NCBI GenBank assembly: GCA_018672285.1 | Contig: JABHGC010000183.1 | Span: forward strand, 133-64,132 | From: Methylococcales bacterium | GTDB lineage: Bacteria > Pseudomonadota > Gammaproteobacteria > JABHGC01 | Reading direction: 5' to 3' | DNA: 64,000 bases | Part shown: piece by piece, positions 6,741-11,071 of the stretch | How the letters are laid out: the number at the start of each line of letters is the position of its first letter | How positions within the stretch are numbered: position 1 is the first letter of the stretch | Translations under genes and position numbers: made by a program | The notes under the pieces: model-generated | The model's input: the letters and a program-made list of their open reading frames with translations, nothing else | Database searches by the model: none | Told to the model about the DNA's origin: nothing

Positions 6741-7547
6741 CTATGCACTTACCCGTTTTTGTTGTTCTTGTTGTTGAGTATTTTTCTGCTGCCTGCGGTG
6801 TATTTCACTTGCTAGCGCAAGGTAAGCAATTGCCCCTTTTGATGCTCTGTCGTATACCGTAGCAGGCAACCCATGTGAGGGTGCCTCTGCCAATCGAACA
6901 TTACGTGGTATCACTGTTCGATAGACCAAGTCGGAAAAATGCCGAATTAACTGTGCTGATACTTCGTTTGCCAAGTTATTTCTTGGGTCAAACATCGTTC
7001 TTAAAATGCCTTCAACAGCTAAATTAGGATTTACAGCAGATTTTATGTTTTCAATCGTCTCCATTAAAGCACTTAAACCTTCCAATGCGAAGTATTCACA
7101 TTGCATTGGAATTAATACACCGTCCGCGGCAATTAATGCGTTTAATGTCAGCATATTAAGTGATGGAGGACAGTCAATAATGATGTAATCAAATTGATCC
7201 ATAACACCATCTAATAACAGTTTGAGTCGTTGTTCTCGTTTTTCTGATGCATGAAGCTCTACATCGGCTGCTGTCATATCTGAATTACTAGGTAAGACGC
7301 TATACCCTGCTGCTTCTGAAAACTGTACAACTTCAGCAAATGTAGCTTCACCAAGCAAGGCATCTAAAGCGGTGTGTTCCAATTCGTTCTTATTGATGCC
7401 TGACCCCATGGTGGCATTGCCTTGAGGGTCGAGGTCAACCAGCAATGCTCGCTGACCTATTGATTGCAATGATGCGGTAATATTGATGCTCGTGGTGGTT
7501 TTTCCAACGCCGCCTTTTTGGTTGGCAATGGCAATTATTTTTCCCAT
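6741..7547 (-). CDS. parA: Chromosome partitioning ATPase ParA/Soj
   Basis: ANQKGGVGKTT deviant Walker A, DLDPQGNAT, IPRNVRLAEAPSHG. Confidence 0.97.
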   Translation of the reverse strand: MGKIIAIANQKGGVGKTTTSINITASLQSIGQRALLVDLDPQGNATMGSGINKNELEHTALDALLGEATFAEVVQFSEAAGYSVLPSNSDMTAADVELHASEKREQRLKLLLDGVMDQFDYIIIDCPPSLNMLTLNALIAADGVLIPMQCEYFALEGLSALMETIENIKSAVNPNLAVEGILRTMFDPRNNLANEVSAQLIRHFSDLVYRTVIPRNVRLAEAPSHGLPATVYDRASKGAIAYLALASEIHRRQQKNTQQQEQQKRVSA

Positions 7548-7576
7548 TGTGATCTCGCTTATTGTTTTAGTGTTTG

Positions 7577-8230
7577 TTATGCGTCGGCACGGGTGACAGG
7601 TTTGAGTATGACTAAATGCCTTGCCCCATCAATATGTGGCACGGTCAATTGCTCAACGTTTGCTATCTCATAGCCTTTTGGTGGTGTTTGTTTTTCTTTT
7701 AACCAATCCCCTTTCATTGCGAGTAATTGTCCATTTTTTTGAAAGAGGCCTGTATCAATAATGAGCATATCAGAAAGGGACGCAAACGCGCGAGTGGTTA
7801 TACTTGAATACTGCCCCTCCTTGGGTAGTTGTTCTATTCTACTGTGTATTGCGGTGACATTGGTTAACCCCAATTCAATCACTGCTTGACGCACAAAGCG
7901 TATTTTTTTGCTATTGCCATCCAGTAACGTGAAGTGCTTTGCTGGATTGGCAATGGCTAGTGGTATTCCTGGTAAGCCTGCGCCAGTACCTACGTCCAAA
8001 ATGTGATCACCATTAATAAATGGCGCAATGGATAAACTATCCAGAAGGTGTTTGATTACCATCTCTTTTGGGTCCCGTATTGCAGTCAGGTTATAAGTTT
8101 TGTTCCATTTTTGCAATAATCCTATAAATTCAATATATTGCGAAATTTGATCTTGACTGAATGACATCGACATTTGGTCTGTGCTAGTTTCAAATAACGA
8201 GGTTAATGCTTCCATGCTAACCGTGCTCAC
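7577..8230 (-). CDS. rsmG: 16S rRNA m7G527 methyltransferase (GidB)
   Basis: WNKTYNLTAIR, HLLDSL, LDVGTGAGLPGIPLA; upstream of parAB. Confidence 0.96.
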   Translation of the reverse strand: MSTVSMEALTSLFETSTDQMSMSFSQDQISQYIEFIGLLQKWNKTYNLTAIRDPKEMVIKHLLDSLSIAPFINGDHILDVGTGAGLPGIPLAIANPAKHFTLLDGNSKKIRFVRQAVIELGLTNVTAIHSRIEQLPKEGQYSSITTRAFASLSDMLIIDTGLFQKNGQLLAMKGDWLKEKQTPPKGYEIANVEQLTVPHIDGARHLVILKPVTRADA

Positions 8231-8232
8231 TG

Positions 8233-8613
8233 TTGAGAATTGAGGTGTTTTTTATGCTAAAACCATTCACACTATTGTTAGCTTTTTTGCTGACAGGTTG
8301 CGGTACTGACCCAAATACCTTAACAACGGGCAAACAGTTATTTGAGCATTACTGTGTTACTTGTCATGGCATCGCGGGCACCGGGGTTTTTTTAAAAGGT
8401 ATTCCGGCCAATATTGTGACGGATAAAAATTTGAGCAGCATTATTGTTCAGATTCAACAAGGGAGCAAACCTAATCGTACCGGAACAAAAATGCCAGCTT
8501 TTCCTAATATTTCAGACAGTGCGGCAAAAAAAATTGCATTACATTTGTTATTGCTAAAAAAAGAATATCTACAGGGTAAACATCGAGATAAGATTCTGCT
8601 TACACCAAAATAA
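8233..8613 (+). CDS. Mono-heme c-type cytochrome, probable lipoprotein (likely start 8254)
   Basis: Lipobox LLTGC, single CVTCH heme motif, distal KMP Met ligand candidate. Confidence 0.85.
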   Translation: MRIEVFFMLKPFTLLLAFLLTGCGTDPNTLTTGKQLFEHYCVTCHGIAGTGVFLKGIPANIVTDKNLSSIIVQIQQGSKPNRTGTKMPAFPNISDSAAKKIALHLLLLKKEYLQGKHRDKILLTPK

Positions 8614-8781: not shown

Positions 8782-9993
8782 TTAGGCCATTCCATGTTGG
8801 GCAATAAGTGCTTCAATTCCTGACAACCGGCGCTGGTGAATGTGCTGCTTAATGTCTAGACCAGACAATTTTAGATAGATGTCTGAATAATCATGTTGCT
8901 CTAGGTGAATTAACCAATTCAGCAGCGCACTTTGTTGTGGGTAGCGTTCATCTTCATATCCGTACCGCCCTCTTGAATCCGCTTTACAGACAAGTAAAAA
9001 AGCTTCAAACCGATCTCGACGACGAAATGCGTCACTTTGTTCAAGTAATGATAAAACGTCCTCTGCTGTTAGTTGAAATAGCCTGTGCACATGAGTGTGG
9101 AAACTGGCCGCAAGTTGTGCAAGCTCAATACATTGATTCGGTGGTTTAAGTCGGTTGCATGCAGCTTTAACCAACTGCACTCCTCGCGCTTCATGGCCAG
9201 GATGTTTCGGCCAGTGCTCTGGTGGCGTTGAGCCTTTGCCTAAATCATGTAAAAGTGCGGCAAAACGAACGTCAATATTGGCTGATAACTTTTCTGCTTG
9301 GCTCAGTACCAATAAGCTATGAATGCCAGTATCAATTTCAGGGTGGCTCGAAGCCGATTGTGGCACCCCGAATAATTTTGAGACTTCTGGCATGATTTTG
9401 GATAAAGCGCCGCAGTCTTGTAACACCTGAATAAAAATGGCGGTGTTTTGCCCTGCTAATGCTTTAGCAAATTCTGCCCATACTCGTTCTGCAACCCACT
9501 TATCAAGATCCCCCTCATCCACCATTGTGGTCATTAACTGCAGGGTACTGCTGGCAATGCTAAACCCTATTCCGTGGTAACGAGCAGCAAACCGAGCTGT
9601 ACGCAATAGGCGAATAGGGTCTTGCCTGAAGCTTGCTGCACTCACATGGCGGATAATTTTATCGTGCAAATCTTGTTGACCAGCAAATGGGTCTATCACA
9701 TGACCGTTTTCATCTTGAGCCATGGCATTGATTGTCAGGTCTCTGCGCGCAAGATCCTCTTCTATTGTGGTATCAGGGTGACTGATGCCTGAGACGTTCA
9801 CCGCTAGGGCATGTTCATCACTGGTTTTTGGGTGTAAAAAAACCGCAAATGATTGACCAACCTGCTGATACCCCTGGGTCAATAAATCGTCTGCTGTGGC
9901 GCCTGTCAGTACCCAGTCTTGATCCACGTTTTTACGCTGCAAAAGTGTGTCACGAACTGCGCCGCCAACTAAGTATTTTTTTATTGAGGCCAT
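8782..9993 (-). CDS. cca: Class II tRNA nucleotidyltransferase with HD domain (CCA family; flexible loop shortened)
   Basis: YLVGGAVRD, DQD, RRDLTINA, DPIRLLRTARF, HPEIDTGIH, LHDLGKG. Family is clear; CCA versus CC activity is uncertain. Confidence 0.9.
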   Translation of the reverse strand: MASIKKYLVGGAVRDTLLQRKNVDQDWVLTGATADDLLTQGYQQVGQSFAVFLHPKTSDEHALAVNVSGISHPDTTIEEDLARRDLTINAMAQDENGHVIDPFAGQQDLHDKIIRHVSAASFRQDPIRLLRTARFAARYHGIGFSIASSTLQLMTTMVDEGDLDKWVAERVWAEFAKALAGQNTAIFIQVLQDCGALSKIMPEVSKLFGVPQSASSHPEIDTGIHSLLVLSQAEKLSANIDVRFAALLHDLGKGSTPPEHWPKHPGHEARGVQLVKAACNRLKPPNQCIELAQLAASFHTHVHRLFQLTAEDVLSLLEQSDAFRRRDRFEAFLLVCKADSRGRYGYEDERYPQQSALLNWLIHLEQHDYSDIYLKLSGLDIKQHIHQRRLSGIEALIAQHGMA

Positions 9994-10009
9994 TGCTACA
10001 CTGAATTGA

Positions 10010-11071
10010 TTGAAGGTGAGAAATTTTATGAAACTAACACGAATAATGGCTGGGATACTATTGCTCTTCGGTGTATTCGCGACGCTCTGCTCTTGTACCG
10101 GATACTACTGGCAATCTGTACAAGGTCAATTAGGGGTGTTTTCAGCCCAGCAGCCAATTGAATCGTTGTTAGAAAATCCACCTACAGATTTGCCTGTTGA
10201 GACTCAAGCTAAACTAGAAACCGTGCTAAAAGCGCGTCAATTTGCGAGTGACTCACTGCAACTACCCAGAAATGACAGCTTTACGTTGTATGCCAATCTC
10301 AAGCGCCCATATGTCGTTTGGTCGGTTATGGCAAGCCCTGCGCTATCACTTGAGGCAACCCAGTGGTGCTACCCTGTAGTGGGTTGCGCGGCATATCGGG
10401 GTTACTTTAAACAGAGTGATGCTGAAGCTTTTGCCTCCGAGCTAAAAGGAAAAGGGTTTGATGTGGTCGTTAGTGGAATCCCTGCTTATTCAACCCTAGG
10501 CTGGTTTGATGACCCTGTGTTTCACCCAGTGCTTTCCTGGCCAGAGACCTCTGTTGTGGGCCTAATTTTTCATGAACTTGCCCATGCTCAACTCTATATT
10601 AAAGGGGATTCGACTTTTAACGAATCTTTTGCAACGGCAGTTGAAATTGCGGGAGTTCGTCAGTGGCTTAAGGTAACTCAGCAGCCTGACTTACTTGAAC
10701 AATTTGAGAAAAAACATGCCCTTAAAAAAGCATTTATCGATTTTGTTTTAAGTTACCGCCGCCAATTTAAAACACTTTATTCAAGTGATGGTGTTGATGA
10801 GGTAAAGCGGCAAGAAAAAGCCAAATTAATGACGCAAATGCAAGCTGACTACCAAAAAATAAAAATTCAGTGGGGCAGTAATGTATACGACCCTTGGATG
10901 GCATCTCTCAATAATGCCAAACTGAATACCCTTTCCACTTACTATAAATACGTCCCTAAGTTGCTGCAAGAAATTGAAAATAAAAAAGAATTTAAACATT
11001 TTTACCGTTATGCAGATACGCTCAGTGATTTTAGTATCGACAAAAGAGCACGAGTGCTTTCATCGGAATGA
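10010..11071 (+). CDS. Putative zinc aminopeptidase lipoprotein (DUF2265-like; ATG alternative 10028)
   Basis: Signal with Cys, IFHELAH zincin motif, downstream TFNESFA, AYSTLGWFDDP. Confidence 0.8.
   Translation: MKVRNFMKLTRIMAGILLLFGVFATLCSCTGYYWQSVQGQLGVFSAQQPIESLLENPPTDLPVETQAKLETVLKARQFASDSLQLPRNDSFTLYANLKRPYVVWSVMASPALSLEATQWCYPVVGCAAYRGYFKQSDAEAFASELKGKGFDVVVSGIPAYSTLGWFDDPVFHPVLSWPETSVVGLIFHELAHAQLYIKGDSTFNESFATAVEIAGVRQWLKVTQQPDLLEQFEKKHALKKAFIDFVLSYRRQFKTLYSSDGVDEVKRQEKAKLMTQMQADYQKIKIQWGSNVYDPWMASLNNAKLNTLSTYYKYVPKLLQEIENKKEFKHFYRYADTLSDFSIDKRARVLSSE

Follow-up and report, generated by a model that had tools for sequence, protein, structure and literature searches.

A Cca-type enzyme without the flexible loop in a gammaproteobacterium: a candidate CC-adding enzyme accompanied by a loop-bearing, HD-less paralog

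Which enzyme adds the terminal adenosine to tRNAs in a bacterium whose Cca lacks the loop on which this step depends in Escherichia coli? The question is raised by a gene in a stretch of 64,000 nucleotides from the genome of a Methylococcales bacterium (assembly GCA_018672285.1, contig JABHGC010000183.1, positions 133 to 64,132), hereafter the window. The encoded protein, an E. coli Cca-type tRNA nucleotidyltransferase of class II, has an HD domain and a deleted flexible loop and is a candidate CC-adding enzyme. Division of CCA synthesis between a CC-adding and an A-adding enzyme is a textbook case of a small deletion re-programming a template-independent polymerase. In bacteria, such split systems have been described in Aquificota, Deinococcota, Cyanobacteriota, Thermodesulfobacteriota and some Bacillota.

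The role of the loop is known from published work. In E. coli Cca it spans R65-F74, and its removal (delta65-74) lowers kcat for A addition about 1200-fold and leaves CC addition (PMC2532741). With the substitutions G70D, G70A and Y71A, hardly any A is incorporated (PMC2910056). In the EDxxR motif, it is the first acidic residue that the loop is believed to act upon (PMC2910056), and a basic/acidic (B/A) motif immediately preceding the loop holds the 3' end of tRNA-CC in place for the addition of A (PMC7014341). Several reports name loop loss as the hallmark of CC-adding enzymes in bacteria (PMC7014341, PMC2910056, PMC3925840); combined with loop deletion, loss of the B/A motif is likewise an accepted marker of this group (PMC7014341, PMC3925840).

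In the window protein, only eight residues, VNVSGISH, lie between E60-H-A-L-A64 and P73-D74, where E. coli Cca has 18. Alignment with Cca of E. coli K-12 (b3056) leaves a gap of exactly ten residues, which falls on R65-F74, and R62-T-E64 of the B/A motif is replaced by V-N-V. The aligned segment reads DEHALA-VNV-(10-residue gap)-SGISH-PDTTIEEDLARRD. The original prediction, made without database searches, had put the loss at about ten residues including R-T-E, by comparison with the E. coli sequence as quoted there; the alignment fixes the number, and the K-12 cca sequence agrees with the quotation. The motifs had also been read correctly. EDxxR appears as QDPIR, with glutamine (Q124) at the very residue on which the loop is thought to act, DxD, RRD and HD are intact, and the HD domain is fully conserved, in line with the retention of the phosphatase domain envisaged there. 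The premise that loop deletion turns class II CCA enzymes into CC-adding enzymes is found in the literature (PMC2532741, PMC2910056, PMC7014341).

To what extent does the protein depart from its relatives? A homolog set was formed by the 120 best matches out of 5.8 billion proteins. The spacing from E-x-ALA to RRD, defined by a strict pattern, is 28 residues in 109 of these homologs, and nine further ones, which fall outside the strict pattern, are intact by eye. Short spacing is confined, in this set, to the window protein (18 residues) and to P0005, in which the deletion is larger. We then compared the window protein with the 118 canonical homologs at the 145 columns whose conservation in them reaches 95% or more. 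It is unchanged at 121 columns, and the 24 changed ones cluster: the B/A motif and loop have lost R, E, R, G, Y, G and F, the "KDFPVF" segment carries D48S and P50A, and E124Q is a further change. The glutamate of EDxxR is 100% conserved in the canonical homologs. Other changes at otherwise invariant sites are L166W and R192Q. Since the deletion keeps the reading frame and its flanks have diverged, and since two contigs on record code for the protein, a frameshift or an assembly artefact is excluded as its origin.

Apart from this region, the protein is an ordinary member of its class. GGxVRD, DxD, RRD and motifs C, D and E are all present, and the change of E to Q in EDxxR is the sole deviation among the class II motifs. 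The 403-residue protein scores 507.2 bits (cut-off 451) against NCBIfam NF008137, "multifunctional CCA addition/repair protein", and this whole-protein score together with the C-terminal HD domain places it in that family. Pfam domains PF01743 (head, 65.8 bits), PF12627 (RNA-binding neck, 36.2 bits) and PF01966 (HD, 41.8 bits) are recognised, and identity with E. coli Cca is 47% in a full-length alignment. The functional hallmark of NF008137, that is a flexible loop with G70 and Y71 and a B/A motif R-x-E, is absent. Judged by its sequence, the window protein thus belongs to the E. coli Cca family, yet it lacks the loop and B/A motif by which that family functions. What it has, a deleted loop along with retained core motifs, is the sequence feature by which CC-adding enzymes are recognised (PMC2910056, PMC7014341), and the NCBI family name probably over-states the function of loop-less proteins.

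A structural model is in agreement with this description. In the AlphaFold2 model (predicted local distance difference test, pLDDT, 95.3; predicted template-modelling score, pTM, 0.91) strand 60-63 is joined to helix 77-81 by a short ordered connection. The class II fold is confirmed by a fold search with the model, which does not tell CC-adding from CCA-adding enzymes; the best matches are tRNA nucleotidyltransferases of class II, the CC-adding enzyme of Aquifex among them (3wfr, template-modelling score 0.67). Sequence search of solved structures retrieved no HD-bearing structure of the E. coli type.

A CC-adding enzyme is expected to be accompanied by a second, loop-bearing class II enzyme in the same genome, and such an enzyme is present. 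The genome assembly (4.17 Mb, 304 contigs, 97% complete, 1.95% estimated contamination) contains three PF01743 genes, coding for PcnB (509 bits on TIGR01942), the window protein and an HD-less paralog of the CCA type. This paralog, 375 amino acids long, is encoded on contig C120 (G000:C120:1647-2774; locus L002 1495-2622), has an intact loop, ALARKEQKTAAGYRGFELIYTPD, and reads DDPIR at the template motif. Three such genes, one of them loop-bearing and HD-less, are the arrangement predicted by a split system. Of 35 tRNA genes detected by ARAGORN, 31 have an encoded CCA. It is lacking in three or four, namely tRNA-Thr(CGU), tRNA-Leu(CAG), tRNA-Leu(UAA) and one Met-like gene (contigs C22, C45, C281 and C217). 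Given this mixed state, the cell must be able to synthesise CCA in full, A76 included.

We examined how often this pair recurs in a sample of 400 genomes of Gammaproteobacteria in the sense of GTDB. A Cca-type gene was detected in 382 of them and two matches in 17, but true second copies occur in about ten, the remaining two-match genomes having split genes or unrelated domains. The statement in the original prediction that gammaproteobacteria typically use one CCA enzyme is thus upheld. Pairs of an HD-bearing and an HD-less enzyme were found in nine genomes, and in eight of these (G000, which is the window genome, G002, G034, G245, G391, G216, G346 and G164) the loop of the HD-bearing copy is deleted or scrambled. 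In the degenerate copies the segment is 18-26 residues long, GY.GF is gone and R-x-E usually is. Two other genomes have two copies of the same type: G167 codes for two HD-less enzymes, one with a 16-residue deletion, and G140 for two intact HD-bearing ones, this being a 69%-complete metagenome-assembled genome (MAG) that may be a mixture.

The pair is particularly frequent in the family that comprises Sedimenticola and its relatives, including (by source names) symbionts of Solemya and Thyasira, where 24 of 61 genomes have two copies. Twenty HD-bearing partners from this family were inspected; 18 are loop-degenerate, one has an in-frame stop and one is intact. Sole HD-bearing enzymes inspected in the same family are canonical in all nine cases. 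Altogether, about 110 inspected sole enzymes, HD-bearing or HD-less, keep ARTERK..GY.GF with one exception, found in an 80%-complete genome. Overall, the pair is known from some 30 gammaproteobacterial genomes, with many Sedimenticola relatives among them, although these co-occurrence counts are not phylogenetically independent. Complete single-contig genomes (G443 and G409, for example) are among the carriers. The GTDB order of the window genome itself is represented by three species genomes only. Both the set of paralogs in the window genome and the pairing in about 30 others speak for the split CCA addition that had originally been suggested, with the CC-only activity being predicted from sequence.

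Are the loop-less enzymes degenerating? This can be judged from 89 loop-less HD-bearing proteins, about 55-99% identical to the Sedimenticola query. D/E24, D26, E60, R84, D85, N89, D125 and R128, as well as the arginines of the neck and all HD ligands, are conserved in them with hardly an exception. Two sites that are near-invariant in canonical enzymes vary: EDxxR begins with E, D, Q or R, and the first R of RRD may be R, Q, H or L. Fixed catalytic residues combined with these two variable sites are the pattern expected if polymerase activity is under selection and the loop-lever mechanism is gone. Judged by the conservation of these residues, enzymes without the loop are not in decay. Three sites change along with the loop and could be used to map its contacts: the E of EDxxR, R at the start of RRD, and D45 (E. 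coli numbering).

The descent of the window protein was estimated from trees obtained by quick searches. Its closest relatives are canonical gammaproteobacterial Cca enzymes (50-57% identity), and all 120 best homologs are gammaproteobacterial proteins of the Cca type with HD domain. In the trees it sits among these canonical enzymes and not in the classical CC-adding clade; CC-adding enzymes in the PDB are 18-21% identical to it. It groups with P0005 (support of 98-99 in the Shimodaira-Hasegawa-like approximate likelihood ratio test, SH-aLRT) on a long branch, with a stem of 0.48 and tips of 0.40-0.62. A quick tree suggested many independent losses of the loop, but in approximately unbiased (AU) tests the grouped trees even score better, and no number of origins is claimed. 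Neither of the two groupings tested in this way, the window protein with P0005 and the G002 protein or all nine loop-degenerate proteins together, is rejected. Differences in remnant length would fit either several losses or continued erosion after a single one. No synteny of the HD-bearing gene was found among G000, G002 and the related genome G001, whose ortholog is intact in this region, so that the two 10-residue deletions of this order are at most candidate orthologs.

The HD-less partners, too, appear to be related to each other. In a tree of HD-less enzymes, all nine partners and two apparently sole enzymes form one clade (SH-aLRT 94), and none of 500 label shuffles was as clustered as the partners. 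The canonical "VGKDFPVF" segment has a G with 100% conservation in 83 other enzymes; in its place all 11 members of the clade have D, N, E or H, and none of about 20 additional members belonging to the Sedimenticola-like family has G there. The loop's first residue, R65, has been exchanged in 10 of these 11 and in 16 of 19 additional clade members inspected in that family. The C-terminal 212 amino acids of the partner were also searched in the 400 class genomes. The clade is not distinguishable by this domain, for the best non-self matches are about 35% identical and many of them are sole HD-less enzymes; clade membership was therefore taken from trees and signature residues.

At the partner locus of the window genome, the HD-less paralog starts with an ATG (L002 1495-1498) that shares bases with the stop codon of the gene upstream, which codes for an ABC transporter with permease and ATPase fused; next comes a gene for a GAF/HisKA_3-type sensor. 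The locus is syntenic in the related genome G002 (L035, G002:C34), with ABC transporter, paralog and sensor kinase.

Which step of CCA synthesis belongs to which enzyme? From the above we infer CC-only activity and a division of labour between two enzymes. The window protein is probably a CC-adding enzyme that also acts as a phosphohydrolase in repair, with the A76 step performed by the HD-less paralog. An active class II enzyme, complete with head, neck and HD domain, would have lost the element that switches its single nucleotide pocket from CTP to ATP and positions tRNA-CC. It would add C74 and C75 to trimmed tRNA 3' ends and stop before A76, and its HD domain would still remove 2',3'-cyclic or 3'-phosphates. 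A76 would be added by the loop-bearing paralog encoded on C120, which may itself be able to make the whole CCA.

Several observations weigh against this division of labour. Loop length is a hallmark of CC-adding enzymes and not a proof; loop transplants do not convert CC-adding into CCA-adding enzymes in every case (PMC3925840), and motifs failed to predict the activities of eukaryotic paralogs (PMC7014341). The C120 partner is without the motif sRxxxExxxhh, which classical A-adding enzymes have in common with poly(A) polymerases (PMC2910056). It reads P-E-R-L-W-Q-E-T-E-R-A-L, so that the residue before R is E and not a small one, as in CCA-adding enzymes (PcnB of the same genome reads P-A-R-M-F-D-E). 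Both loops are intact in the pairs of G134 and G452. Finally, G187 (99% complete) and G126 have a member of the partner clade as their sole CCA-type enzyme. Complete CCA synthesis is thus probably within the capacity of the clade, or was so in its ancestors; the partner may do the whole job, and the polymerase activity of the window protein may be redundant. In its strongest form this would make the HD-less paralog a full CCA-adding enzyme and the window protein a copy under relaxed selection, kept mainly for its HD activity, with the loop lost by decay. Besides the two sole enzymes just mentioned, sole HD-less enzymes are common in the class, the loop remnant varies by lineage in length (12-30 residues) and sequence like an unconstrained segment, the HD-bearing partner in G413 has an in-frame stop, and an analogous decaying CC-adding enzyme has been reported in Acanthamoeba (PMC7947759). 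Yet the 89 loop-less proteins, even at about 55% identity to the query, show no variation in the catalytic carboxylates, in motif B, in the D and R of the template or in the neck residues, and the window protein is unchanged at 121 of 145 conserved columns. A whole active site would not be spared by decay over such a time. We regard such a redundant copy as rather unlikely.

It is also conceivable that the window protein still adds complete CCA, the shortened connection or other residues compensating for the loop, and that the paralogs are plain duplicates. All five core motifs are present, the cut-off of NF008137 is exceeded, and specificity is determined by more than the short loop (PMC3925840). 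This is quite unlikely, however, given that removal of the same ten residues from E. coli Cca costs 1200-fold in A addition (PMC2532741) and that the protein is without G70 and Y71, neither of them dispensable for A addition, and without the B/A motif; besides, loop loss almost only where a loop-bearing paralog exists is unexpected for a dispensable loop. A new function on substrates other than ordinary tRNA 3' ends, for example the C-tailing or repair of RNAs of other kinds, or C addition coupled to a role as nucleotide phosphohydrolase, would suit the long branch shared with P0005 and the extra changes D48S, P50A, L166W and R192Q, and some non-tRNA substrates of CCA enzymes are known (PMC4477674). 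Against it, the neck, HD and C-terminal regions align over their full length with canonical Cca with no new domain added, and the gene neighbourhood (cytochrome c, rsmG, parA, putative aminopeptidase) is uninformative, so we consider it very unlikely. That the two paralogs come from different organisms in one MAG, or that the deletion is an assembly error, is hardly credible despite the fragmented assembly and its estimated contamination. GC content (0.431 for contig C303 and 0.436 for C120, against 0.431 for the genome) and tetranucleotide correlation (0.99 and 0.98) are within the normal range of the genome, the same pair occurs in the complete genomes G443 and G409, the partner locus is syntenic in G002, and the features of the deletion given above point the same way. 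Chimerism of the MAG was rejected on composition and recurrence.

The preferred reading, a CC-adding and end-healing enzyme with the A76 step left to its paralog, could be extended beyond the window genome. A separate gammaproteobacterial two-enzyme CCA system is imaginable, in which the loop-less HD-bearing enzyme would add CC and heal ends, and the HD-less clade, marked by the change of VG to x-D/N and the loss of R65, would be a dedicated A76-adding enzyme. The pair would be inherited or transferred together and would be widespread in Sedimenticola-like sulfur oxidisers and chemosynthetic symbionts, and present also in the rare order of the window genome. This extension is tentative and we give it less than even credence. 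If true, healing and CC addition would be physically apart from A addition, which would provide a checkpoint for tRNA 3'-end repair.

Coordinates of the gene and its motifs are given in Table 1.

Table 1. The loop-less cca-like gene of the window and its sequence features (positions in the window; residue numbers of the window protein).
Feature	Position	Strand	Basis
Gene for class II tRNA nucleotidyltransferase, E. coli Cca type, HD domain present, flexible loop deleted	8782..9993	-	Open reading frame, 403 amino acids
Motif A, G10-G-A-V-R-D15, and catalytic D24-Q-D26	9916..9966	-	Invariant columns; kept in 89 loop-less relatives
Strand E60-H-A-L-A64 with E60 as putative third catalytic carboxylate	9802..9816	-	E60 in 88 of 89 loop-less relatives; model strand 60-63
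Loop remnant V65-N-V-S-G-I-S-H72 in place of B/A motif (R-T-E) and flexible loop	9778..9801	-	Alignment with E. coli Cca
Motif B, D80-L-A-R-R-D-L-T-I-N89, intact; RRD is R83-R84-D85	9727..9756	-	Alignments
Motif D, nucleotide template Q124-D-P-I-R128; templating D125 and R128 kept, loop-contacting E changed to Q	9610..9624	-	Conserved-column audit
HD phosphohydrolase domain; H217, H249-D250, H264, H267, H299 and D339 all intact	8965..9345	-	PF01966, E = 1.5e-10; invariant columns

E60 is assigned as putative third carboxylate by aligning the protein with other enzymes of class II. In the database the protein is 400 amino acids long, compared with 403 in the open reading frame (ORF). The cca-like gene's ATG and the divergent TTG of an ORF for a PF10023 putative aminopeptidase are a mere 16 bases apart (9993-10010), and at least one of the two starts probably lies further in. 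Downstream of the cca-like gene are parA (6741-7547, minus strand), an rsmG/gidB-like gene (7577-8230, minus strand) and, closest to it, a small ORF resembling a cytochrome c lipoprotein (8233-8613, plus strand). A parA/rsmG neighbourhood of this kind (6741-8613) is typical of a chromosome origin, and cumulative GC skew has a local minimum at about 8-10 kb.

Other unusual Cca relatives were noted in the genomes surveyed. L196 (G413:C85:139400-140950), from the Sedimenticola-like family, is a loop-less HD-bearing partner with an in-frame TAG in its N-terminal part and is possibly a pseudogene. L063 (G207:C15:19831-20412) and L064 (G363:C1:62268-62849) are stand-alone, headless proteins that match only residues 160-353 of the window protein (neck and HD) with 37% identity; their genomes also have canonical Cca. 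L065 (G098:C4:35219-35887) and L066 (G215:C21:51612-52250) code for Cca-like proteins of about 265 amino acids, again beside canonical Cca. Motif A is degenerate in both (GKPVRD or GTAVRD, with "SNE" and "PDPE" for DxD) and RDLTIH stands for RDLTIN, so that, as far as these motifs tell, they are probably catalytically dead relatives.

Full-text literature search retrieved no report of loop-deleted, HD-bearing CC-adding candidates in Gammaproteobacteria, which is weak evidence, as most subscription journals are outside its coverage. What sets this case apart is the deletion in an HD-bearing lineage of the E. coli type, in a class thought to rely on a single enzyme, its occurrence in dozens of genomes, and a recognisable clade of partners. 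Cultured carriers such as Sedimenticola offer an opportunity to ask why repair and CC addition should be separate from A addition.

The bacterial pairs of CC- and A-adding enzymes known from Aquifex aeolicus (AaS/AaL), Deinococcus, Synechocystis, Bacillus halodurans and Geobacter/Thermodesulfobacteriota likewise consist of a loop-deleted class II enzyme and a loop-bearing paralog (PMC7014341, PMC2910056, PMC3925840). The classical CC-adding clade differs from the window protein in descent: in a 2026 preprint (10.64898/2026.05.29.728689) the subfunctionalised pairs, this clade included, fall in a cluster of other phyla that diverged early. In addition, the classical A-adding partners have sRxxxExxxhh, unlike the partner in the window genome. 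Independent CC-restricted paralogs with loop and B/A motif lost or scrambled are also known in eukaryotes, namely Ntr3 of Acanthamoeba castellanii and the CC-adding enzymes of Schizosaccharomyces pombe and Salpingoeca (PMC7947759, PMC7014341). Like the window protein these occur next to other tRNA nucleotidyltransferases, but they are HD-less and of unrelated descent. Closest in architecture is E. coli Cca, which shares with the window protein the class II head, the neck and the HD domain, motifs A-E and all HD ligands. It is, however, E. coli's only CCA-adding enzyme, whereas the window genome has a second, HD-less paralog. The window protein can best be seen as a natural counterpart of the delta65-74 laboratory variant of E. 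coli Cca, from which the same ten aligned residues are gone. Unlike that variant, it has lost the B/A motif as well, along with the E in EDxxR, and there has been time for adaptation to the shortened connection.

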